Assembly: GCA_964552045.1 (NCBI GenBank) | Contig: CAZKFF010000002.1 | Span: 3,855-67,854, forward strand | DNA: 64,000 nucleotides | Origin: an uncultured Candidatus Saccharibacteria bacterium | Lineage (GTDB): Bacteria; Patescibacteriota; Minisyncoccia; Phycocordibacterales; UBA918 | Direction of reading: 5' to 3' | In this document: piece after piece, positions 1,630-61,420 of the stretch | Numbering within the stretch: position 1 is the stretch's first letter | Layout: the number at the start of each line of letters is the position of its first letter | Notes under the pieces: model-generated | What the model saw: the letters and a program-made list of their open reading frames with translations, nothing else | What the model was told of the DNA's origin: nothing | Databases searched by the model: none | Program-made: the position numbers and the translations under genes

Positions 1630-4503
1630 ATGTTTACCGAGGTTACAAAGCGAAACGGCACTAAAGTGCCGTTCAATCCCGAGAAGATCATTAGTGCGAT
1701 GCGTAAGGCATTCGTTGCAGAGAACACGCCGGTTGACGACACAGTGCTCCGCCAGATGACCGACCGTGTCGTAGCGAAGCTGCAACTCCTCTTCGAAGGA
1801 AAGACGGAATGTCCGACCGTTGAGATGGTCCAGGATTTCGTGGAAGAGACGCTCATGGAGCGCGGCTATTTCACTGTCGCAAAAGCATACATCCTGTACC
1901 GCTTCAAGCAGACAGAGGTCCGCAAAGACGAGGTCGTGACGCAGATCGAGGAGAATCGGCTCATGATCAAGACAGCACGGGGAGAAGAGCAGTTCTCACG
2001 AGAGGAAATGCGCACGTACATTGAGCAGTTCATCGATGGTGTTGAGAAAGACATCGATGTCGATGGTGTGCTCAACCAGCTTGAACGCGAGGTGTACGAC
2101 GGCATTTCCACAAAAGAGCTTTCAAAGCTCGTCACGCTGGTGCTGCGCGCGAAGATCGAGCTCGATCCAGCGTACTCGCAGGTGGCTGCCCGGCAGCTTT
2201 CAGCGCGCCTCTATGAGGAAGCGATCGCTCCTGATGTGAGGCCCGGCGATGCGGATTTCATACAGAAGTACCGCGATGCATACGCCAAGAACATCACGCT
2301 TGCCGTTGCCGAGAAGAAACTTGCTCCGGGTATGCTCGACTTTGATCTCGCAAAGATCGCTGCAGCTATAGAGCCATCACGCGATGACCTGTTCCGATAC
2401 CTCGGCGTGGAGACGCTCCATGACCGCTATTTCATCCGTGCGGAAGACGGGCGGGTGCTCGAGACGCCGCAGTTCATGTGGATGCGTGTGGCGATGGGCC
2501 TCGCGCTCGAAGAAAAAGAGAAGGAGGCCCGAGCCATCGAGTTTTATGAGGTGATGTCAACGTTACGCTTTGTGCCGTCTACCCCTACACTGTTCCATGC
2601 GGGTACGCCGCATCCGCAGCTTTCGTCGTGTTACCTCAACGTTGTTGAGGACGATCTCAACCATATCTTCAAGGTGTTTGGAGACAACGCGCAGCTTTCG
2701 AAGTGGGCAGGAGGGATCGGTACCGCGTGGAGCAAGCTCCGCGCAACCGGTGCACTGATCAAGACCGCCGGCATCACCTCGCAGGGAACCATTCCGTTTC
2801 TGAAGATCGCAAACGATGTCACGGTCGCCATCAACCGTTCAGGCCGCCGCCGCGGTGCGACCTGTGTGTACATGGAGAATTGGCACTACGATTTTCCGGA
2901 CTTTTTGGAACTCAAAAAGAACACGGGAGATGAACGCCGCCGTGCGCACGATATGAACACCGCTTCCTGGGTCTCTGACCTCTTCATGAAGCGGGTCAAG
3001 GAGGATGGCGACTGGACCTTGTTCTCGCCGGATGAAGCGGTTGACCTTACCGAGACATACGGCAGGGAGTTTGAAGAACTCTACACTAAGTATGAAGCTA
3101 TGGCGGAGCGCGGCGAGATACACCTCTTCAAGAAGATGAAGGCGCGCGAGCTCTGGAAGAAGCACATCAGCATGCTCTTTGAGACAGGCCATCCGTGGAT
3201 CACCTTCAAGGACCCGAGCAACATTCGTTCGCCGCAGGACCATGCGGGCGTGGTGCACAACTCGAACCTCTGCACGGAGATCACGCTCAACACGTCTGCA
3301 ACAGAAACAGCGGTGTGCAACCTCGGTTCGGTGAACTTTGCTGAACACATCACCAACGGTCAGTTTGATACGGAGAAGGTGAAGGCAACCGTAGCGATCG
3401 CTATGCGCATGCTCGACAATGTCATTGATCTCAACTTCTATCCGACCAAGGAAGCGCAGTATTCGAACATGAAGCACCGCCCGGTCGGGCTCGGCGTTAT
3501 GGGATTCCACGATGCGCTCTACGCGCTTGATATCAACTTCGCCTCAGAGGAGTGTGTGACATTCGCCGATACGTCTATGGAAGTGGTGTCATACGCGGCG
3601 ATCCTCTCTTCAACCGAACTCGCACGCGAACGCGGAAGCTATGAGAGCTTCCCGGGAAGCAAGTGGGACCGCGGACTGCTTCCGGTTGACACCATTAAGC
3701 TCCTTGAAGAGAACAGAGGGCTGTCAACCACCATCGACAATACCGAACGGCTCGACTGGGCGCCGGTGCGCGAAGCGATCAAGAAGTACGGCATGCGCAA
3801 CAGCAACTGCATGGCGATCGCTCCAACAGCGACCATCTCGAACATTGCGGGATCAGTGCCGGGCATAGAACCGATCTACAAGAACATCTATGTGAAGTCG
3901 AATATATCCGGAGACTTTATCGTGGTCAATGAGGCCTTGGTGAATGATCTCAAGAAGCGGGGAATGTGGAGCAAGGAGATGCTCGACACCTTGAAGTTCA
4001 ATGACGGGTCCATCCGTCACATTCCGGGCATTCCACAGGAACTTAAGGAGAAGTACCGCGAGACCTTCGAGATCGACATGAAATGGCTTATGAAGGCTTC
4101 GGCGAGCCGCGGCAAGTGGATCGACCAGTCACAATCCGTGAATATCTTCTATGCAGGAACCTCAGGCAAGGAGATCAGCGACCTCTACCTGTACGCATGG
4201 GAACTCGGCGTGAAGACCACCTACTATCTGCGTAGCTTAGGCGCATCGCAGGTGGAGAAGTCCACGATCAACGCCGCAGGTACGCAGCTGCGGAAGAAGC
4301 ATGACGAGGAGGGAACAGGCGAAGCTTCTGAAGCGGCAGCAGGCGCAGAAGCGCCGATCGTCTCGCCGCTTGCGACCCCTTCGCCTATCCAGAAAGAGCA
4401 GATAGATGCAGCGAAGGTTGCGCACGCTGCGCCTACTCCTGCTCAGATGGCGCAGATCAGGCTGCATGTGGCGGAGGACGCGGTGTGCGAGTCCTGCCAG
4501 TAA
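1630..4503 (+). CDS. nrdA: Ribonucleoside-diphosphate reductase alpha subunit (class I) with N-terminal ATP cone
   Basis: 957 aa; ATP-cone N-terminus (VTKRNGTKVPFNPEKI), conserved RNR catalytic core, C-terminal Cys pair (CESCQ). Confidence 0.95.
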   Translation: MFTEVTKRNGTKVPFNPEKIISAMRKAFVAENTPVDDTVLRQMTDRVVAKLQLLFEGKTECPTVEMVQDFVEETLMERGYFTVAKAYILYRFKQTEVRKDEVVTQIEENRLMIKTARGEEQFSREEMRTYIEQFIDGVEKDIDVDGVLNQLEREVYDGISTKELSKLVTLVLRAKIELDPAYSQVAARQLSARLYEEAIAPDVRPGDADFIQKYRDAYAKNITLAVAEKKLAPGMLDFDLAKIAAAIEPSRDDLFRYLGVETLHDRYFIRAEDGRVLETPQFMWMRVAMGLALEEKEKEARAIEFYEVMSTLRFVPSTPTLFHAGTPHPQLSSCYLNVVEDDLNHIFKVFGDNAQLSKWAGGIGTAWSKLRATGALIKTAGITSQGTIPFLKIANDVTVAINRSGRRRGATCVYMENWHYDFPDFLELKKNTGDERRRAHDMNTASWVSDLFMKRVKEDGDWTLFSPDEAVDLTETYGREFEELYTKYEAMAERGEIHLFKKMKARELWKKHISMLFETGHPWITFKDPSNIRSPQDHAGVVHNSNLCTEITLNTSATETAVCNLGSVNFAEHITNGQFDTEKVKATVAIAMRMLDNVIDLNFYPTKEAQYSNMKHRPVGLGVMGFHDALYALDINFASEECVTFADTSMEVVSYAAILSSTELARERGSYESFPGSKWDRGLLPVDTIKLLEENRGLSTTIDNTERLDWAPVREAIKKYGMRNSNCMAIAPTATISNIAGSVPGIEPIYKNIYVKSNISGDFIVVNEALVNDLKKRGMWSKEMLDTLKFNDGSIRHIPGIPQELKEKYRETFEIDMKWLMKASASRGKWIDQSQSVNIFYAGTSGKEISDLYLYAWELGVKTTYYLRSLGASQVEKSTINAAGTQLRKKHDEEGTGEASEAAAGAEAPIVSPLATPSPIQKEQIDAAKVAHAAPTPAQMAQIRLHVAEDAVCESCQ

Positions 4504-17754: not shown

Positions 17755-17828
17755 AGGATGCGCTTAGACAAATAATACCTATGATATCGCAGCTTGTTTT
17801 GGTCTCCTAGGCTCTGGGATATTAGACA

Positions 17829-17858
17829 ACAAAAACGGGCGGACCGTAGGTCCGCCCC
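17829..17858 (-). terminator. Intrinsic terminator for the minus-strand HIT gene
   Basis: gggcggacc gtag gtccgccc hairpin with the T-run on the minus strand. Confidence 0.7.
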
Positions 17859-17862
17859 GTGC

Positions 17863-18381
17863 TTATGCCCGTTCTCCTGCATTGTAACGCGCCTCGAATT
17901 CCAAAGCGCGTGCCACGTCCTTTTCACGCTCCTCCTTGCTCTTGAAGACGGGGATGGACAGCGGCCCTGTGCCGCTCGGTACCCAGAGGTTCCAGTGAAG
18001 GTGCAGCATCGTACCGGCATTCAGGCGCATGTCGCCGAACCGGGCGAAGAGCATGCCTCCCGGCAGGTTGAAATGCGCTTCTGCGTACGCGATCATCTCA
18101 GCGAAGGAGGCCCAGGCTTGCGGCGTGACGTCGCTCAGCTTCCGCCAATGCTTTCTCGAGATGATGACAAGCATCACCTCGCACGGACGGGTGTTCTTAA
18201 AGGCGTTCTCGAACATGATCCAGTCCGCGTTCTCGTGGAGGACTGTGTTGATGCTGTGGTCCAAGCCACAGAAGCCGCAGTAGCCATCCTCGAATGTCTT
18301 GCGCAGTTGGCAATAGTACGCGAAGTCGTACGGCAGAGTGGTACAGAACCGCTCTTCCTCGGTCAGCACTTTTTGCGGCAT
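17863..18381 (-). CDS. Second HIT-like protein (HxHxN variant) with CGFCGLDH zinc motif
   Basis: TMLHLHWNLWV triad variant; paralogue of the 16410-16826 protein, on the other side of thyA. Confidence 0.6.
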   Translation of the reverse strand: MPQKVLTEEERFCTTLPYDFAYYCQLRKTFEDGYCGFCGLDHSINTVLHENADWIMFENAFKNTRPCEVMLVIISRKHWRKLSDVTPQAWASFAEMIAYAEAHFNLPGGMLFARFGDMRLNAGTMLHLHWNLWVPSGTGPLSIPVFKSKEEREKDVARALEFEARYNAGERA

Positions 18382-18486
18382 GTTCGTCTCCCGGTATCCG
18401 CTGAATTTCCAGGCGCTACTACACCATATTTACAGAGATATTTCAAGCATTTGCCGGACTGCCCTTGGTGCTACACTGAAAAGGTT

Positions 18487-18909
18487 ATGGAACTTCCCGT
18501 GCAAAAACTCCATCCGGACGCGAAATTGCCTACATTTGCACACAACACTGATGCAGGTATGGACCTGTATTGCATTGAGGAGATCACGCTTTTGCCCGGA
18601 GAACGCGGTCAGGTGAAGACCGGTATTGCCATCAGCGTGCCCGAGGGCTATGTGGGACTGATCTGGGACAAGAGCGGTATTTCGCATGTGCGGGGACTGA
18701 AGACGCTCGGCGGGGTCATTGACCACGGCTACACGGGAGAAGTGTTTGTCGGGATATACAATACAGGAAATGCTCTGCAGACATTTGGGGTCGGCGACAA
18801 GGTCGCTCAGATACTCATTCAGAAATATGAGCATCCAGCGATAGTGGAAGTATCGTCGCTTACCGCCTCAGAGCGCGGAGCGAAGGGTATTGGAAGCACA
18901 GGAAAATAA
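18487..18909 (+). CDS. dut: dUTP diphosphatase
   Basis: 140 aa with conserved dUTPase motifs (AGMDL, GLIWDKSG, IDHGYTGE); upstream part of the long ORF is not coding. Confidence 0.9.
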   Translation: MELPVQKLHPDAKLPTFAHNTDAGMDLYCIEEITLLPGERGQVKTGIAISVPEGYVGLIWDKSGISHVRGLKTLGGVIDHGYTGEVFVGIYNTGNALQTFGVGDKVAQILIQKYEHPAIVEVSSLTASERGAKGIGSTGK

Positions 18910-19641: not shown

Positions 19642-20910
19642 ATGAATGAATATCACTACATCAAAGCGCAGGACGAGGAGATCTACACCGCGATAACGGG
19701 GGAGGAACAGCGGGAAATACGCGGACTCGAACTCATCCCGAGCGAGAACTATGTCTCCAAAGCCGTCCGTGAAGCGAACGGCTCGGTCTTGACCAATAAA
19801 TACTCCGAAGGTTACCCGGGCAAGCGCTATTACGGAGGCCAGACTTATACCGACATCGTTGAGACCATTGCCATGGAACGGGCGAAGCAGTTGTTCAACT
19901 GTGAGTATGCGAATGTGCAGCCGTTGTCGGGTGCACCGGCAAACGTCGCGATGTACTTCGCGCTTATGGAACCAGGAGACACGGTTTTGGGGATGGACCT
20001 TTCGCACGGCGGACATCTCACGCACGGACATCCGACCACCGCGATCAATAAGGTATTCAACTTCGTCCGCTACAAGATGAAGAACGTGGATACCGGCGAG
20101 ATCGATTACGATGAGCTTCGGGCAGTGGCGCTTGAACACAAGCCGAAGATCATTCTTGCTGGATTCTCCGCCTACTCACGCGAGCTCGATTATAAGAAGT
20201 TTGTAGCCATCGCCCGGGAAGTGGGCGCGTATGCGGTGGCTGATATGGCGCACATTGCGGGCCTCATCGCAGGCGGAGTTGCACGCAATCCGTTTGATGA
20301 CGGATTCGATGTCATCACCACGACCACGCATAAGACGCTGCGCGGACCTCGAGGCGGCATGATCCTCGTACGTGAAAGCGAGGAGATCGCAAAAAAGATC
20401 AACAAGGCCGTATTCCCGGGGCTGCAGGGAGGGCCGCATATGAATGTGATCGCGGCGAAAGCGGTTGCGTTCGGTGAGGCGCTTGCTCCTGCGTTCAAGG
20501 AATATGCACAGCAAATACTGAAGAATGCGAAAGCAATGGAAGCGGTGTTCAAAATGGAGGGCATTCGCATGCTCGGAGGGGGTACCGACAACCACCTCAT
20601 TCTTGCCGATGTGTACGGCAGCCTGGGCGTCACCGGGCAGGAGGCGGAGACAGTGCTCGACGAGGTGGGCATCACGCTCAATAAGAATATGATCGCGGAC
20701 GAAACACGCAGCGCGCTTGATCCCTCGGGCATCCGCTTCGGTACGCCGGCGATGACCACGCGCGGGATGCATGAAAAAGAGGCGACACTTGTTGCCACAC
20801 TCATGATCGATACGCTCCGCAACAGGGGTGATGTGCAGAAGAAAAATAAGAACAAGGGAGCGGTAGAAGAGCTGTGCAGAGCCTTCCCGGTGCCTGAATC
20901 GTTCATATAG
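19642..20910 (+). CDS. glyA: Serine hydroxymethyltransferase
   Basis: 422 aa; PLP-lysine region TTTTHKTLRGPRGG and SENYVS motif. Confidence 0.95.
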   Translation: MNEYHYIKAQDEEIYTAITGEEQREIRGLELIPSENYVSKAVREANGSVLTNKYSEGYPGKRYYGGQTYTDIVETIAMERAKQLFNCEYANVQPLSGAPANVAMYFALMEPGDTVLGMDLSHGGHLTHGHPTTAINKVFNFVRYKMKNVDTGEIDYDELRAVALEHKPKIILAGFSAYSRELDYKKFVAIAREVGAYAVADMAHIAGLIAGGVARNPFDDGFDVITTTTHKTLRGPRGGMILVRESEEIAKKINKAVFPGLQGGPHMNVIAAKAVAFGEALAPAFKEYAQQILKNAKAMEAVFKMEGIRMLGGGTDNHLILADVYGSLGVTGQEAETVLDEVGITLNKNMIADETRSALDPSGIRFGTPAMTTRGMHEKEATLVATLMIDTLRNRGDVQKKNKNKGAVEELCRAFPVPESFI

Positions 20911-20921
20911 AAGTCAGATAC

Positions 20922-20952
20922 AAAAACCACCGTCCCACCAGCGGTGTTTTTG
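20922..20952 (+). terminator. Probable intrinsic terminator after glyA
   Basis: caccg/cggtg hairpin followed by TTTTT. Confidence 0.5.
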
Positions 20953-20989
20953 CTGTGCTTGCTTTTATTCACATATAGTGTAGTATCTT

Positions 20990-21166
20990 CACTCCTGGTG
21001 GTTTCTCCGGACCTGCACCCCGCCCCCTTAGGTCTGTTGCAGAGATCATTAGCCCCCGAGACGGCCGCACCTGTGTGGCGCTCTGGGAGGAGGTGTCACA
21101 AAACATAGGGCGGCCGTCTCGGACTCACAACCGGGACGTTTTTTATTTTCTCTCACCTCGGGTATA
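20990..21166 (+). promoter_or_regulatory. Candidate riboswitch- or attenuator-type leader with mutually exclusive antiterminator and terminator helices
   Basis: Putative promoter (TTGCTT-16-TAGTAT) at ~20959-20987; 11-bp helix 21058-21068/21110-21120 overlaps the 5' arm of terminator hairpin 21116-21137 plus T-run; terminator ends 11 nt before ATG 21177. Confidence 0.35.
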
Positions 21167-21176
21167 CAATGAACCA

Positions 21177-22262
21177 ATGGTACGAAGACTCAAGGAACTG
21201 TTTGAAAAGCACCGGCATCATTTTTTGACCGTCGCCTTCGTCTTTGGGTTCATTGTCGATAATCTCACGCTCACGCGCGTTGACCAGCTGTTTGATAACG
21301 CCATCCTGCTTACATATATAGTGCTCGCAATGGGGAGCTTCCTTATGCTGTATGCGGGCAGCGCCGGGAAGTTTCCCGAAAAGATGAATCATGCAGTCCG
21401 GCGATATGCGCCGCTTTTCACGCAGTACGCGTTCGGCGGACTCTTCTCCGGCATGCTTATATTCTACGGCCGGAGCGGTTCCTGGATGGTAAGCTGGCCG
21501 TTTTTGCTCATCATTCTTGGCGTCATTTGGGGCAATGAGACGATCAAAGACCGGGTACAGCGGCTCTTGTTTAATATCGCCATGCTCTTCGTGGGACTCT
21601 TTTCATATGTGGTTCTGATCGTGCCGGTTGTTGTGGGGGCAATGGGGGCGCTGGTGTTTGTTGGCAGCGGCATCTTGGCATTGTGCATCATGCTGCTGTT
21701 CATCCGCGTGCTTGCGCTTATTGTGCCGAGGTTCATCGCGCTCCATCAGCGCGCGCTTATCTTTATGATCGGCCTCATTTTTGCGCTGTTCAATTTCTTA
21801 TATTTCGCCAATATCATCCCGCCCATCCCGCTGTCGCTGAAGCAGGTGGGCGTCTACCACAGCGTGGTGCGCTTTGAGGACGGTTCATACCAGCTGAAGT
21901 ACGAGGAGGGCGACTGGTGGCAGTTCTACAAAGCATCAGACGACATCTTCCATCCGGTAGCGGGCGGCAATGTATTCTGCTTCGCGAAAGTGTTCGCCCC
22001 AACGACCATCCAGACCGATATCTATCACACGTGGGAATATTATTCAGAGGACGAGGGGAAGTGGATCGAGCATGCGCGGCTCTCGTATCCGATCGTCGGC
22101 GGCGGCGCTGAGGGCTACCGCGGGTATACGCTTATAGAGAATTACCGCGACGGCACTTGGCGGTGTACTGTGGAGACTGCCCGTGGACAGGTGCTCGGAC
22201 GGGAGGTGTTCAAGGTGGATACGCAGCATCCAGTGCGGGAATTCCAGACGCGCCGCGAATAG
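21177..22262 (+). CDS. Polytopic membrane protein with C-terminal soluble domain (possibly DUF2914-like)
   Basis: Start at the internal MVRRLKELF; multiple TM helices followed by a ~130-aa globular C-terminus. Confidence 0.55.
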   Translation: MVRRLKELFEKHRHHFLTVAFVFGFIVDNLTLTRVDQLFDNAILLTYIVLAMGSFLMLYAGSAGKFPEKMNHAVRRYAPLFTQYAFGGLFSGMLIFYGRSGSWMVSWPFLLIILGVIWGNETIKDRVQRLLFNIAMLFVGLFSYVVLIVPVVVGAMGALVFVGSGILALCIMLLFIRVLALIVPRFIALHQRALIFMIGLIFALFNFLYFANIIPPIPLSLKQVGVYHSVVRFEDGSYQLKYEEGDWWQFYKASDDIFHPVAGGNVFCFAKVFAPTTIQTDIYHTWEYYSEDEGKWIEHARLSYPIVGGGAEGYRGYTLIENYRDGTWRCTVETARGQVLGREVFKVDTQHPVREFQTRRE

Positions 22263-24440: not shown

Positions 24441-27400
24441 ATGCAAACTCCAAAGAATACCGGCATTGGTGCTGAAAAAAGCGAAGTAGCGCTCCGCGAA
24501 GAGGAGGTGCTTGCGTTCTGGCGCGAGCACGATATTTTTCATAAAAGTCTCACCAAGGAAGCGCCCAAGGGCGATTTTATATTTTATGACGGGCCGCCGT
24601 TTGCAACGGGGCTTCCGCACTACGGCCACATCCTCGCCGGCACGATCAAAGACGCGATCCCGCGCTTCTGGACGATGAACGGCTATCGTGTGCCGCGCAA
24701 GTGGGGATGGGACTGCCATGGGCTTCCGCTTGAGAACCTCATCGAGAAGAAGCTCGGATTGGCGACCAAGCGCGACATAGAAGAGTACGGCGTGCAGAAT
24801 TTCAATGAAGCTGCGCGCGGTGCGGTTTTGGAGTACGCCGATGACTGGCGGCAGATTATTCCCCGCATGGGTCGATGGGTGGATATGGAGGATGACTACA
24901 AGACCATGGACTCGGCCTACACCGAAAGCGTATGGTGGGTATTCTCAGAGCTCCACAAAAAAGGACTGGTATATGAAGGATTCAAAAGCATGCATCTGTG
25001 TCCTCGCTGCGGCACCACGCTCTCAAACTTCGAGGTCAACCAGGGATACAAAGATATCAAGGATATTGCGGTGACGGTAAAGCTGCCGCTCTCTGACGAG
25101 CCCAATACGTCGCTTCTGGTGTGGACTACAACCCCATGGACACTGCCGGGGAACATGGCCGCGGCGGTACATAAAGATGGATTATATGTAAGTGCGACTG
25201 TTGAAAAAGTGGAGGGCCAATTACAGGGATTAGGACTTGCGAAGGGTGAGACATACATCTATGCGCAAGATTGTGAAGCCAATGTCTTTGGAGGAGACTC
25301 GGGAGTTTTAGAAGGGGCAGAGTTCGGCAAACGTGTTATCAACCTGAAAGGAGCAAATATTTATCTAGAGAACTACAAAGAATTTAAGGGATCGGCGCTT
25401 GTCGGGAAAAGGTATGTCCCGCCGTTTGACTATTTCCGCGAGCGTGACTTCGCGGGAAAAGAGAACGCATGGAAGATCTACCATGCGGATTACGTCGAGC
25501 TCGGTGAAGAGGGAACCGGCGCAGTGCATCTCGCTCCCGCATACGGAGAGGACGACATGAACCTCGCAAAGGAGCACAATATCCCGATTGTGCACCATGT
25601 GGACACTGAAGGACACTTCATGGATTTCGTCACTGATTTCGCGGGGCAGCTGGTAAAGCCGAAGGACGACGACGATGCACGCATCACGCACCTTGATGCG
25701 GACATTGAGGTGCTGAAGAAGCTCCAGGAGGAACGGGATGAGTACGGAAGCCGGCTCTTTCGCAAGGAGAACATCACCCACAGTTATCCGCACTGCTGGC
25801 GGTGCGACACGCCGCTTCTGAACTATGCGACCACGTCTTGGTTCGTTGAGGTCACCAAGATCAGGGATCAGCTGGTGGCAGAGAACAGCACGGTGCAGTG
25901 GGTACCTGAGCACGTGGGAACCAGCCGCTTCGGCAAATGGCTGGAGAACGCCCGCGACTGGGCGATCAGCCGGCAGCGCTACTGGGGCGCGCCGCTGCCC
26001 ATCTGGAGGAATCCGAAGACCAAAGAATATAAAGTGTTCGGGTCGCTGCATGACCTGCAGCAGCATGTACGCAAAAGCGGCAATACGTACCTGATCATGC
26101 GCCACGCAGAAGCGCAGAGCAACATAACGGGGCTCATCGATTCCATTCCTGACGAGAACAATCCGCTGACTGAAAAAGGGATAGAGCAGTGCGCAGCGGC
26201 TGCCGCACAGCTGAAGGATAAAAAGGTCGATCTCATTTTCCATTCGGGCATGCAGCGCACGCGAGACACAGCGCTGCGCGTGGCGCAGGCACTCGGACTT
26301 CCCCAGGAGAGTGTCATCGAAGACCGAAGGCTCCAGGAGCTGCAGACCGGCGTGGGTCTTGAAGGGAAAACCTGGGACGATTATGAGGCGCATTTTGAAA
26401 CTCCCGAGGAAAAGTTCACGAAGGTCATTCCGGGGGTTGAGAACCGCACCGATGTGCTCAAGCGCACCGGTGAGTTCCTCTATGAGGTAGACGGGAAGTA
26501 TAGCGGGAACACGATCCTCATCATCGGACATGCGAGCTCGACGTTCTCGCTGCGGAGCGTCGCTGAAGGGGCGGACATCTCCCGCAGTCTGGAAATTCGT
26601 GCGGAGGGGTATATGGAGAACGCGCAGATACTGGAATTGCCGTTCACGCCGATGCCGCACAACGACAGCTACACCCTCGATTATCACCGCCCGTACATTG
26701 ATGCTATACAGCTGTTCGAGAAGGACGGCACGCCGCTTGTGCGCGTGCCTGATGTCTTCGACTGCTGGTTCGAATCGGGATCAATGCCGTATGCGCAGAA
26801 TCATTATCCATTCGAGAACCTTGATGTGTTCAATGCGGCGAACGGAAAGGGATTTCCTGCGCAGTTCATCTCAGAGAGCATCGACCAGACGCGCGGCTGG
26901 TTCTATTCGATGATGGTGCTCGGCGTCGCGCTCTTCGGCAGATCACCGTATGAGCATGTGGTCACCAACGGCCTCGTGCTTGCCGAAGACGGAAAGAAGA
27001 TGTCGAAAAAGCTGCAGAACTATCCGGATCCGGTTGAGCTCGCGAACCGCGTCGGAGCGGACGCCATACGGTTCTATATGCTCTCCTCTTCCATCATTCG
27101 GGGAGAAGATCTCAACTTTTCTGAAAAAGGGGTACTGGAGCTGCAGCGGAAGAACATCGGACGCCTGCACAATGTACTCGCGATGTATGAGATGTTTGCC
27201 GACGCCACGCAGGCGCGCGCTTCTTCAGAACACGTGCTTGACCGCTGGATCGTGTCGCGCCTCCATGAGCTCGTCGCGGAATCGACCCAGGGCTTCAAAA
27301 ACTACGAGCTCGACAAGGCGACCCGTCCGGTGACGGACTTCATCGACGACGTATCCGTATGGTATCTGCGCCGCTCGCGCGACCGGTTCAAGTCAGACGA

Positions 27401-28067
27401 CGAGGCAGACCGCCAGTGCGCACTTTCGACCCTGCGGTATGTGCTTCAGACGCTTGCGCTTGTTCTGGCGCCGTCCATGCCGTTCTACGCCGAGTATCTG
27501 TGGGGAAGGGTGAGGGAGGATGACGCGCCAGAAAGCGTGCATCTTGCTTCCTGGCCGCAGGGAGGAGCGATCGACGCCGATCTTCAGAACGCGATGAAGG
27601 AAGTACGCGATATCGTTTCCCTTGCCCTTGAGGAGCGCACCAGATCGGGTATCAAAGTGCGCCAGCCGCTTTCGATGTTGTTCCTCCGCGAAGACAGCAT
27701 CGTGCGGCACGAACCGTACCGCAGCCTTGTGCTCGATGAAGTGAATGTCAAAGAGATCGATCATAAGCCGCATATTGAGAACAGAGTGGCACTCGATACG
27801 CAGATCACCCCTGAGCTTCGGGCAGAAGGGGACGTCCGTGAATTTGTCCGTCAGGTGCAGGACATGCGCAAACAGGCAGGATTGCAGCCGAGGGACCGCA
27901 TCGTGCTGTGCATCCAGACCTCGAAGGAAGGAGAAATGATGATAGACCTGTACCGTCGGGAGATAGAGAAGATCGTGGGTGCCGAACTGATCGCATTCAG
28001 CGAGAACAATGGGCAGGAGCTGCGCGCCGGCGAGCATTCGTTCACCGTCACGCTCGAGAAGCGATAG
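24441..28067 (+). CDS. ileS: Isoleucine--tRNA ligase carrying an inserted histidine-phosphatase (PGAM-like) domain
   Basis: 1208 aa; HIGH (PHYGH), CP1 editing motifs (TTPWTLP, GTGAVHLAPAYGEDD), WAISRQRYWG, KMSKK; ~200 extra aa (about aa 546-745, nt ~26076-26675) with LIMRHAEAQ and IIGHASS histidine-phosphatase signatures. Confidence 0.9.
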   Translation: MQTPKNTGIGAEKSEVALREEEVLAFWREHDIFHKSLTKEAPKGDFIFYDGPPFATGLPHYGHILAGTIKDAIPRFWTMNGYRVPRKWGWDCHGLPLENLIEKKLGLATKRDIEEYGVQNFNEAARGAVLEYADDWRQIIPRMGRWVDMEDDYKTMDSAYTESVWWVFSELHKKGLVYEGFKSMHLCPRCGTTLSNFEVNQGYKDIKDIAVTVKLPLSDEPNTSLLVWTTTPWTLPGNMAAAVHKDGLYVSATVEKVEGQLQGLGLAKGETYIYAQDCEANVFGGDSGVLEGAEFGKRVINLKGANIYLENYKEFKGSALVGKRYVPPFDYFRERDFAGKENAWKIYHADYVELGEEGTGAVHLAPAYGEDDMNLAKEHNIPIVHHVDTEGHFMDFVTDFAGQLVKPKDDDDARITHLDADIEVLKKLQEERDEYGSRLFRKENITHSYPHCWRCDTPLLNYATTSWFVEVTKIRDQLVAENSTVQWVPEHVGTSRFGKWLENARDWAISRQRYWGAPLPIWRNPKTKEYKVFGSLHDLQQHVRKSGNTYLIMRHAEAQSNITGLIDSIPDENNPLTEKGIEQCAAAAAQLKDKKVDLIFHSGMQRTRDTALRVAQALGLPQESVIEDRRLQELQTGVGLEGKTWDDYEAHFETPEEKFTKVIPGVENRTDVLKRTGEFLYEVDGKYSGNTILIIGHASSTFSLRSVAEGADISRSLEIRAEGYMENAQILELPFTPMPHNDSYTLDYHRPYIDAIQLFEKDGTPLVRVPDVFDCWFESGSMPYAQNHYPFENLDVFNAANGKGFPAQFISESIDQTRGWFYSMMVLGVALFGRSPYEHVVTNGLVLAEDGKKMSKKLQNYPDPVELANRVGADAIRFYMLSSSIIRGEDLNFSEKGVLELQRKNIGRLHNVLAMYEMFADATQARASSEHVLDRWIVSRLHELVAESTQGFKNYELDKATRPVTDFIDDVSVWYLRRSRDRFKSDDEADRQCALSTLRYVLQTLALVLAPSMPFYAEYLWGRVREDDAPESVHLASWPQGGAIDADLQNAMKEVRDIVSLALEERTRSGIKVRQPLSMLFLREDSIVRHEPYRSLVLDEVNVKEIDHKPHIENRVALDTQITPELRAEGDVREFVRQVQDMRKQAGLQPRDRIVLCIQTSKEGEMMIDLYRREIEKIVGAELIAFSENNGQELRAGEHSFTVTLEKR

Positions 28068-57142: not shown

Positions 57143-57875
57143 CACATTGTTATGAAATTTGAGTTAAGAAAACTGTAGCGGGACACGAGTTCTTAAAGGA
57201 TTCTTGTGCCGCGAAAAGCGGTTTTTTTAAAAACAAAGTTCAAGGTACGATGCGATTTTTGAAAATTGCATATTCTACTCGGATCGGGTGTAGGATACCC
57301 GGTCCGGTATAAGTCCTGTGTGCTCGACACACACAGGCATGTTCGCGTTCTCGTCGTTACTACGTCACAGCGAGGACAAGAGCAAGCTTGCTTGTTTTTA
57401 GTCCGAGCGAAGACGAAGTAAACACCGCAAGGTGTTTGCTGTTTCGAGAACGCGAACAAAGGTAGTGCGCAGAGTTAAGATTATGTACAAACGGTACAGG
57501 GTCTTTTCGTCCTCTGCGCACATCAAAACACATCGAGTCTTCAAGAGTCGTATTTTCTCTTGAAGACACAACACACTCAAAAAAATTGTACAGCGGTGTG
57601 AGAAAGTCCGGTGGACTTTCGCAAGAGGTTGCCTGTCTGCTGTCACAGCAGCGACAACCTGAACAGCTCCTGTAAGGAGCAGCATTCCTTGCGAATTTCT
57701 CAGAGTCGACTTTCTTAATATCGTTGTGCATGAAAAATTGTACAGCGGTGTACAGCATTCCTTACTGCGGAGTGAGCGAGTGTCGCGCAAAAGTTTACTT
57801 TTGCATGACCGAGCGAACGAACGCAGAAAGGTAACGAGTACGAAATATCGCAATGCGATGTCCAGTATTCCTTAC
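57143..57875 (+). other. Long structured 23S rRNA leader with internal ~150-bp imperfect tandem duplication and 5' arm of the processing stem
   Basis: Nested long-range helices (gttcgcgttctcg/cgagaacgcgaac; 11-bp gtcttcaagag hairpin); direct repeat aaaaattgtacagcggtgt at 57581 and 57733; agtattccttacagg pairs with cctgtaaggaatact at 60865-60879. Confidence 0.5.
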
Positions 57876-60885
<3,010 letters not shown>

Positions 60886-60986
60886 TCGATACAATTTTTC
60901 TTTGCAGTGTGGTGTAGCGATGTGTTTTGATCAAAAGTAGAATATGCACGTTTGGATATTTTGAAGTGGTAGAAGTATTACTTCGT

Positions 60987-61181
60987 CGGAGTATAGCGCA
61001 GCCTGGTAGCGCATCTGTTATGAGTGAAGTCCTCGTTACTCGTCGCCTTCTCCTCTCCGGAGGAAGGAACGAAAATCGAACTCTGATTCGCAGCGATGCC
61101 GCAGGGAGTCTGCACAACAGCTCCTAGGCTTCGGACTTCTGGAGCAGGGGGTCGAAGGTTCAAATCCTTCTACTCCGACCA
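60987..61181 (+). tRNA. tRNA-like gene with encoded CCA interrupted by a ~118-nt intervening sequence (tentatively tRNA-Gln CUG)
   Basis: Perfect 7-bp acceptor CGGAGTA/TACTCCG, canonical D-arm GCGC-AGCCTGGTA-GCGC, T-arm GAAGG-TTCAAAT-CCTTC, CCA; anticodon stem TCTGT(61014-18)/GCAGG(61144-48) forms only if 61019/20-61136/37 is removed, leaving loop UUCUGGA. Confidence 0.45.
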
Positions 61182-61310
61182 CTTCAATAGCTCGTCGTCT
61201 GAGAGAATGCGACGGGCTCGGCATCCCTCTTTTGAACCGCATTGAGAGAGGGATGCCACTACTTCAGAATATCCAAACACGTCGCACACGCATGCGTATT
61301 GAAGGTTTAA

Positions 61311-61420
61311 AGTTGGTGCTTTGGCCAAGAGGGTACACCTGTTCTCATTCCGAACACAGAAGTTAAGCTCTTCCGCACCGATGGTACTCCGCAAGGGGGA
61401 GAGTAGGTTGGCGCCAACTT
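61311..61420 (+). rRNA. rrf: 5S ribosomal RNA
   Basis: CCGAACACAGAAGTTAAGC and GGTACTCCGCAAGGGGGAGAGTAGG conserved blocks; terminal helix gttggtgc/gcgccaac. Confidence 0.85.

Follow-up and report, generated by a model that had tools for sequence, protein, structure and literature searches.

A candidate small RNA gene with three competing helices between glyA and a DUF2914 gene in Patescibacteria

Between glyA and the gene of a DUF2914 membrane protein, in a 64,000-nt stretch of DNA that we refer to as the window, we recognized by sequence and conservation a putative σ70-type promoter, a structured RNA and a terminator, which together would give a transcript of ~150–160 nt. Four related segments (A, B, A′ and A″) build up the 3′ domain of this RNA, and the helices A:B (H-alt), A:A′ (P2) and A′:A″ (the terminator) exclude one another. 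From the sequence comparisons described here we lean towards an independent small RNA gene of ~155 nt with a three-state folding switch, and not a leader of the gene that follows. The folding switch would secure the small RNA's own termination and may also gate its activity, and the DUF2914 gene would have a separate TACAAT promoter that gives a leaderless mRNA. The small RNAs present at the same site in relatives are C-rich (anti-SD-like); judging from these, it is most likely that the small RNA acts in trans via its C-rich single-stranded parts.

The element and its locus

The closest database relatives of the window proteins are named Kaiserbacteria or Paceibacteria (Patescibacteria). The gene order around the element is thyA (on the minus strand), dut, tmk, glyA, the element, the DUF2914 gene, argS and ileS, the last of which has a histidine-phosphatase domain inserted. 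The upstream neighbour, glyA (19642–20910), is followed by an intrinsic terminator of its own (20928–20950, + strand), so the element is not simply the 3′ end of glyA; an equivalent terminator lies ahead of the element promoter in every homologue. The DUF2914 gene extends from the ATG at 21177 to 22262. Its 361-aa product is 100% identical to a database protein (P0001, 361 aa), and because of this identity, together with the alignment of homologues, we took the ATG at 21177 as the true start. Structure prediction gave a protein with eight transmembrane helices and a generic C-terminal β-sandwich (pLDDT 80); a fold search with this model returned no informative solved relative, and hence no hint of a ligand. 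A literature match for DUF2914 proved to be a misprint, as the sole relevant-looking one concerned QNG1, which is DUF2419.

The element promoter is on the + strand at 20959–20986, with the −35 hexamer TTGCTT at 20959–20964, a 16-nt spacer and the −10 hexamer TAGTAT at 20981–20986, from which transcription would start at about 20993. Folding prediction places a 5′ hairpin, P1, at 20995–21052 (+), with the C-rich apical loop CACCCCGCCCCCUU. Next comes segment A (21053–21068, +; CCCCCGAGACGGCCGC), consisting of a C-rich linker and a 5′ arm, which has two alternative partners. With segment B (21074–21087, +; UGUGGCGCUCUGGG), the 5′ half of an apical hairpin and its G-rich loop, it makes H-alt through the pairs 21055–57/21085–87, 21059–61/21082–84 and 21064–69/21074–79 (+). 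With A′ it makes P2, a long hairpin (21056–21122, +) that corresponds to an antiterminator-like state and whose apical stem-loop shows CUGGGAGGA. The lower stem of P2 (21056–21068/21110–21122, +) has 13 bp, among which 21058–21068/21110–21120 is a perfect core.

The terminator occupies 21115–21149 (+), with the stem 21115–21122/21131–21138 and the T-run at 21139–21149. Its hairpin (21115–21138) reads CGTCTCGG, 8 nt, CCGGGACG, and is followed by TTTTTTATTTT. A stem of 8 bp including 6 G-C pairs, and then TTTTTTATTT, is what is expected of an intrinsic (Rho-independent) terminator. The 5′ arm of the terminator is at the same time the 3′ arm of P2, the nucleotides 21115–21122 being common to both stems. 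The RNA as a whole (20990–21155, 166 nt) folds at −71.6 kcal/mol compared with −55.8 ± 4.3 kcal/mol for shuffled sequences (z = −3.7), and none of the 200 shuffles was as good.

Many of these parts had been recognized in an earlier note on this DNA. The promoter TTGCTT-16-TAGTAT is present as it described, the 11-bp helix that it saw is the perfect core of the P2 lower stem, and the overlap of the 3′ arm of this helix with the 5′ arm of the terminator is confirmed. The ~40-nt stretch enclosed by the helix, which the note took for a loop, does exist as a segment but is itself structured. Two details needed correction: the T-run is T6-A-T4 and not T8, and the distance from its end to the true ATG is 27 nt instead of 11 nt, with a TACAAT hexamer in the gap.

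Homologues and three mutually exclusive helices

The search for homologues started from 80 genome loci encoding relatives of the DUF2914 protein. As nhmmer with the window sequence matched L001 alone among these 80 loci, the close relatives were gathered one protein at a time. A metagenome pattern scan added two true matches, along with five chance matches in G+C-rich coding DNA; since two homologues came from this pattern, which fixed part of the P2 stem, covariation there is under-sampled. Counting identical contigs once (L081 = L082, L084 = L085, L098 = L099 and L102 = L103), we obtained 11 distinct copies: those of the window, L001, L081, L083, L084, L088, L095, L098 and L102, and two in L091 (L091A and L091B). 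All of them come from a narrow clade of Kaiserbacteria-like contigs.

Each of the 11 copies is located between glyA and the DUF2914 gene, on the same strand as both, and each has the upstream-gene terminator, the promoter block, a variable P1, the C-rich linker, P2 and the overlapping terminator. The promoter block, GTGCTTGCWttt-16/17-TAnnAT, is kept at the same distance in 11/11 homologues, and that of L091B scored 9/12 in a promoter scan. A P1 hairpin is predicted for the window and for each homologue, its sequence and length differing among them, and every homologue has the terminator, whose stem shows compensatory changes. We also made a covariance model of the 3′ domains; it found exactly one copy per locus (two in L091), and its matches were on the + strand only.

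We next compared the paired segments. The RNAalifold consensus of the aligned 3′ domains consists of H-alt and the terminator, not P2. In H-alt, CCCCGAGACGGCCGC of segment A pairs with GUGGCGCUCUGGG of segment B, and compensation is seen in L091A (CCCCCGAG with CUUAGGG), L091B (CUCUCGAG with CUUGAGAG), L083 (CCCAAGG with CUUUGGG), L081 (CCUG with CAGG) and L084 (CUUCCGAG with CUUGGGAG). In the same manner, the variants of A′ (CUCGG, CUCAGG and CUUGGG) are accompanied by matching changes in both A and A″, the latter occurring as CCGAG or CCGGG, CCUGAG or CCUGGG, and CCCAAG, respectively. When cognate duplex energies were compared with non-cognate ones by permutation, the cognate segments paired better, the permutations doing as well in 2/20000 cases for A:A′, 0/20000 for A′:A″ and 24/20000 for A:B.

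Because the alignments hold few sequences and were in part fitted to the structure, these counts and the following figures are to be read as support and not as proof: in the model-derived alignment, H-alt and the terminator together have 92.6% of cells paired and 10 double-change pairs (2/500 shuffles), with a covariation score of 0.36 versus 0.21 (0/500 shuffles), and the P2 lower stem has 91.6% of cells paired and 4 double-change pairs, a conservative count because MAFFT misplaces bulges in this stem. In that sense, the data support the view that all three helices have been kept by compensatory evolution.

We also considered whether the GGGAGGAG loop is a Shine-Dalgarno mimic. It is better read as one strand of H-alt, because in L091B the loop, GAGAG, changes together with the linker, CUCUC, and also because the host barely uses Shine-Dalgarno sites. 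As to a kissing or pseudoknot interaction, complementarity of the loop to the 5′ tail or to the C-rich loop of P1 is strong in L098 and L083 and inconsistent elsewhere.

The folding energetics suggest an order in which the helices may form. For transcripts cut just after B, the minimum-energy fold was P1 plus H-alt in 11/11 homologues. The terminator state (calculated with A blocked) and the P2 state (A″ blocked) are separated by 0.2–7.3 kcal/mol across all 11, with P2 slightly favoured, and the unconstrained minimum-energy fold is the terminator or the P2 state depending on the homologue. With A′ complete, the saddle between H-alt and P2 was 4.5–33 kcal/mol, mostly >12, by a direct-path (findpath) calculation that is rough. 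Based on these models, we propose that H-alt forms first in the nascent RNA and occupies segment A. A′ would then emerge free and pair with A″, and transcription would terminate by default, with H-alt being kinetically persistent during synthesis. The released RNA could later relax to the slightly more stable P2, in which the terminator stem is opened and the 3′ tail is exposed. Alternatively, a trans factor on the G-rich B segment or on the C-rich linker might tip the balance, and P2 would then be a factor-induced state.

Small RNA gene, attenuator and other readings

We observed that, at the sequence level, the element has its own promoter and terminator and is separable from its flanks, as an independent small RNA gene should be. 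The spacer between the element and the −10 box of the DUF2914 gene varies from about 15 nt in the four cases where the element is immediately ahead of the gene (the window, L081, L091B and L098) to about 250 nt in L001, and in L001 it includes a second strong terminator (2652–2667) between element and gene. In L091 the element occurs as two diverged tandem copies with a promoter and a terminator on each. It is absent from L086, L100 and L089, which have 72–75% protein identity and an unchanged gene order; in L086, at 75% identity, the spacer is 98 nt. In its variable spacing, the extra terminator of L001, the duplication in L091 and its patchy presence, the element thus behaves as an autonomous unit.

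The site itself appears to favour such units. The glyA–DUF2914 order is kept in 78 loci with spacers of 31–1451 nt, and in more distant relatives many of these spacers hold other short promoter–hairpin–terminator units. In a Paceibacteria relative (L045, 2855–2927) we found a match to RF00519 (mmgR/suhB) of 58.8 bits against a cut-off of 41 bits, carrying the UUUCCUCCCU motif; scores below the threshold were obtained in L052 (35.9 bits) and L026 (29.8 bits). In about eight loci the unit carries UGUCCCUCGUUCC, flanked by a 5′ hairpin and a terminator, and L016 has a simple unit with UGCCCCAAUAACUU. In L006 and L007 a P2-like hairpin comes after the UGCCCCAAUAACUU motif, and its 3′ arm doubles as the 5′ arm of the terminator; these two loci also have an H-alt-like early helix, and so show the three-helix architecture of the window element with unrelated helix sequences. 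Given this variety, the glyA–DUF2914 interval is a hot spot of small-RNA-like genes that carry C-rich motifs in single strands; of the local versions, that of the window looks the most elaborate.

The DUF2914 gene, in turn, has a −10 box, TACAAT, at 21165–21170 (+), downstream of the terminator and separated by 6 nt from the ATG. The sequence gGTACAATa is found a few bases ahead of the ATG in nearly all 80 loci. A TAnAnT hexamer occurs ≤25 nt from the ATG in 82/89 loci (exactly TACAAT in 67 of these), against a background of 5.7% of 25-nt windows, and the distance from the end of the hexamer to the A of the ATG is 6–7 nt in 52 of the 89. The box is also present ahead of the gene in genomes without the element. 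We take a TACAAT box placed 6–7 nt before the ATG as the mark of a leaderless mRNA.

The genes of the window mostly have no Shine-Dalgarno sequence, and −10-like boxes are close to their start codons. This scarcity fits with the finding that the anti-SD motif is missing in about half of Parcubacteria (PMC9297842). With Shine-Dalgarno sequences mostly missing and with promoters abutting the start codons, long regulated leaders are atypical here. The proximity of a terminator to the gene is not a mark of attenuation either: the T-run ends ≤45 nt before the ATG in 45 of the 59 syntenic loci that bear one, whatever lies upstream, which makes it a general trait of the compact arrangement.

These observations bear directly on the best surviving alternative, a cis-acting attenuator, which we regard as possible though doubtful. 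Here, transcription would stop by default through H-alt, and a factor on B, or one stabilising P2, would free A for A′ and allow read-through into the DUF2914 gene and perhaps as far as argS and ileS; this would either add a leadered mRNA to the leaderless one or occlude the leaderless promoter. A protein, an RNA (e.g. an anti-SD-like sequence) and a metabolite are candidates for the factor. The earlier note had proposed attenuation in a leader of the membrane-protein gene, and a good part of that proposal stands. The competition between an antiterminator-like helix and the terminator is real, and both helices are conserved, with compensatory changes and with the whole arrangement recurring in 10 further homologues; the covariation analysis that it suggested found the alternative pairings conserved and compensated, and H-alt, as a third helix, completes the three-hairpin layout.

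An antiterminator that excludes the terminator and is evolutionarily kept is indeed what one expects of an attenuator, and three exclusive helices with compensatory changes are its classical layout. The layout also speaks against the small RNA reading, as it is textbook for a cis attenuator and unusual for a plain trans-acting sRNA, and so does the fact that the element always precedes the DUF2914 gene in the same orientation (11/11). The near-isoenergetic end states and, in the window, the mere 27 nt between T-run and ATG are likewise in favour of attenuation.

However, the remaining part of the earlier proposal, that the element is in a 5′ leader of the gene it regulates, is not supported once the predicted promoters are taken into account. 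Behind its attenuator, the DUF2914 gene would still have a conserved promoter, the extra strong terminator of L001 would stand between the two, each tandem copy in L091 has kept a promoter, and close relatives manage without the element. In addition, the AUG inside a read-through transcript is not preceded by a Shine-Dalgarno sequence. Conservation is centred on the switching parts: among the 11 sequences, all from one clade, the invariant positions are the switching helices and the G-rich loop, P1 is variable, and no conserved pocket-like core, aptamer-like junction or known protein-binding motif is evident. We therefore keep to the small RNA gene as the preferred reading, although the fact that its single-stranded 'seed' is only loosely conserved counts against it.

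A further possibility, which we consider unlikely, is that the element represents a new Patescibacteria class of factor-responsive switch, in which binding to B or to the linker frees A, P2 forms and the terminator fails. If this were true, a terminated small RNA would be exchanged for a long transcript across the leaderless DUF2914 promoter, and expression of DUF2914, possibly with argS and ileS, would alternate between a leaderless and a leadered form. With the same three-helix logic present in L006 and L007 in unrelated sequences, this would then amount to a lineage-wide regulatory principle.

It is improbable that the element is a divergent form of a known RNA (SRP, 6S, T-box or a riboswitch) missed by Rfam, or an inverted repeat functioning at the DNA level as a protein operator or a recombination site. 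The long conserved inverted repeat would suit either idea, and the folate and aminoacyl-tRNA synthetase neighbours are typical of ZTP, THF and T-box RNAs in other phyla. However, a scan of 20850–21300 with Rfam 15 (4227 models) gave nothing at the gathering score, and relaxing the limit to E ≤ 10 yielded just three matches, all at chance level (mir-515, OrzO-P and ftsZ-DE, E = 2–7.8); the homologous elements in L001, L081, L083, L084, L088, L091, L095, L098 and L102 also had no Rfam match at the gathering score. With the scans covering the window, its region and 20 relatives, the element belongs to no Rfam family, in agreement with the earlier note, which by eye had matched it to no known riboswitch class. 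On inspection, the domain IV motif of SRP RNA, the rod with a central bubble of 6S RNA and the T-box sequence are absent, and ZTP and THF riboswitches, considered because of the folate and tRNA-synthetase neighbours, are represented by neither features nor a model match. A housekeeping RNA would not be dispensable in close relatives, as this element is, and the G-U pairs, the T-run and the strong, strand-specific (+ only) model matches argue for RNA and against a DNA-level palindrome.

Ribosome-mediated (leader-peptide) attenuation, in which translation of an ORF in the P1 region decides between the helices, or a small protein gene in that region, is largely rejected and very improbable: an AUG or GUG, followed by M-V/T-x-P/A-D, does occur in several homologues ~10–12 nt from the predicted 5′ end, but the ORF differs among homologues in frame, length (15 to >48 codons) and sequence, the P1 indels are not multiples of three, L081, L083, L088, L095 and L091A have no ORF at that position, and there is no run of a particular codon.

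Significance and comparison with known RNAs

To our knowledge, hardly anything has been described of regulation by RNA in Patescibacteria (CPR), ultra-small bacteria with tiny genomes, many of which have lost the Shine-Dalgarno system. The element described here, although narrow in distribution, is a structured RNA family not in Rfam, and the clear comparative evidence for three competing helices makes its folding pathway directly testable. From one relative to the next, the small hot spot at the glyA–DUF2914 interval is occupied by different small-RNA units, including one that is mmgR/SuhB-like and far outside Alphaproteobacteria. The strongly conserved leaderless-promoter signature is something that annotators should weigh before calling an upstream hairpin an attenuator.

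The element resembles the three-hairpin attenuators (trp-type leaders, PyrR-controlled pyr leaders and riboswitch platforms) in that the 5′ arm of its terminator can pair with an upstream segment instead, that this antiterminator segment is sequestered by an earlier helix, and that all three helices are compensated. It differs from them in that a leader peptide and a recognisable aptamer are missing, as are motifs of the PyrR, T-box or ANTAR type, and in its order of pairing, which is 1:2/1:3/3:4 where theirs is 1:2/2:3/3:4. Moreover, the gene 3′ of the element has its own promoter between terminator and ATG, and the element can be duplicated together with its promoter or cut off from the gene by an extra terminator.

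Among trans-acting RNAs, the C-rich seed sRNAs of Gram-positives (RsaE/RoxS type) act without Hfq. The element likewise has C-rich unpaired motifs beside hairpins, whereas no sequence or model similarity to these sRNAs was found and the SD sequences that they usually target are apparently little used in the host.

A second likeness is to mmgR/SuhB (RF00519, αr8), a trans-acting, Hfq-dependent sRNA with an anti-SD motif in Sinorhizobium meliloti (PMC7143759). A member of this family is matched at the syntenic site in L045, and the window element, too, is small, has its own promoter and terminator and contains C/U-rich single strands; the 5′ tail of L098, UUCCUCCC, and CCUCCC in L083 resemble the UUUCCUCCCU of the family. 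In contrast, the window element has no RF00519 match even at E ≤ 10, is twice as long and has the P2/H-alt switch that mmgR lacks; the likeness is one of site and motif rather than of proven homology.

Finally, SreA/SreB and EutX/Rli55 are riboswitch- or attenuator-terminated RNAs that act also in trans. Those RNAs have aptamers or ANTAR sites in true leaders, neither of which was found for the element. What they have in common with it is the principle that a short terminated transcript could, besides carrying a termination switch, be functional in itself.

The DUF2914 gene and its protein

The DUF2914 gene occupies window 21177–22262, and we observed that a TACAAT box lying 6–7 nt upstream of its ATG (box and start codon, window 21165–21179) is very strongly conserved in front of the start codon in relatives, being present in 82 of 89 loci from the set that encodes related proteins (L001–L103). 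This conservation so close to the start codon implies that the DUF2914 mRNA would be leaderless. Many further genes of the window are likewise not preceded by a Shine-Dalgarno sequence, and −10-like boxes lie near their start codons.

In the predicted structure of the DUF2914 protein (pLDDT 80), eight transmembrane helices precede a beta-sandwich at the C terminus, and this sandwich weakly resembles carbohydrate-binding and Ig-like domains. A fold search with this predicted structure found no solved homologue of the protein.

Other genes of the window

The isoleucyl-tRNA synthetase encoded by ileS (window 24441–28067; 1208 aa) is interrupted at residues ~551–721 by an inserted histidine-phosphatase (His_Phos_1) domain, and this insertion is kept in four relatives (L081, L083, L084 and L089). 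The dut ORF, as listed, encodes 371 aa (window 17794–18909). Since the dUTPase domain is limited to residues 243–370 and the dut proteins of relatives have ~140 aa, the listed start is probably overcalled, making the ORF too long. The 23S and 5S rRNA genes were located at window 57872–61419, and no 16S rRNA gene was detected across the whole 64-kb window. Upstream of the 23S gene the sequence is occupied by ORFs, so an unlinked arrangement of the rRNA genes is possible in this organism.

Small-RNA-like units in the glyA–DUF2914 spacer

In three of the 11 loci having a homologue of the window element, the candidate small-RNA gene of this spacer, a small Cys-rich ORF of ~60–75 aa with CxxC-like motifs at its end lies between glyA and the element (L001 1995–2222, L081 ~1990–2180 and L091 ~2560–2790); it is not present in the window. 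L091 has two tandem copies of the element (2851–2969 and 2998–3131), which are clearly diverged and both possess a promoter and a terminator of their own. In the second, copy B, both the C-rich linker (CUCUC) and the G-rich apical loop (GAGAG), which pair in the early alternative helix, are altered in a compensatory manner.

More distant relatives have element-like units at L006 2790–2925, L007 ~1620–1745 and L010 2650–2915, the last comprising two differing units in tandem. These share the architecture of the window element, namely a variable 5′ hairpin (P1), a C-rich motif, a hairpin whose 3′ arm is the terminator 5′ arm and an early alternative helix, with unrelated helix sequences. Another small-RNA-like unit, built from a 5′ hairpin and a terminator with a single-stranded UGUCCCUCGUUCC-like motif between them, recurs in the spacers of L016, L019, L053, L064, L065, L066 and L077. 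A similar motif, UUGUCCCUUCC, was observed in L001 (~2495–2515), downstream of the window-type element.

Matches to the mmgR/SuhB family in relatives

The mmgR/SuhB family (Rfam RF00519) was described from Alphaproteobacteria. A Paceibacteria MAG (L045 2855–2927) has a full-score match to this family (58.8 bits), containing the UUUCCUCCCU motif, and sub-threshold matches were obtained in two more relatives (L052 2837–2935 and L026 2829–2900). The L045 match occupies the same glyA–DUF2914 site as the window element.
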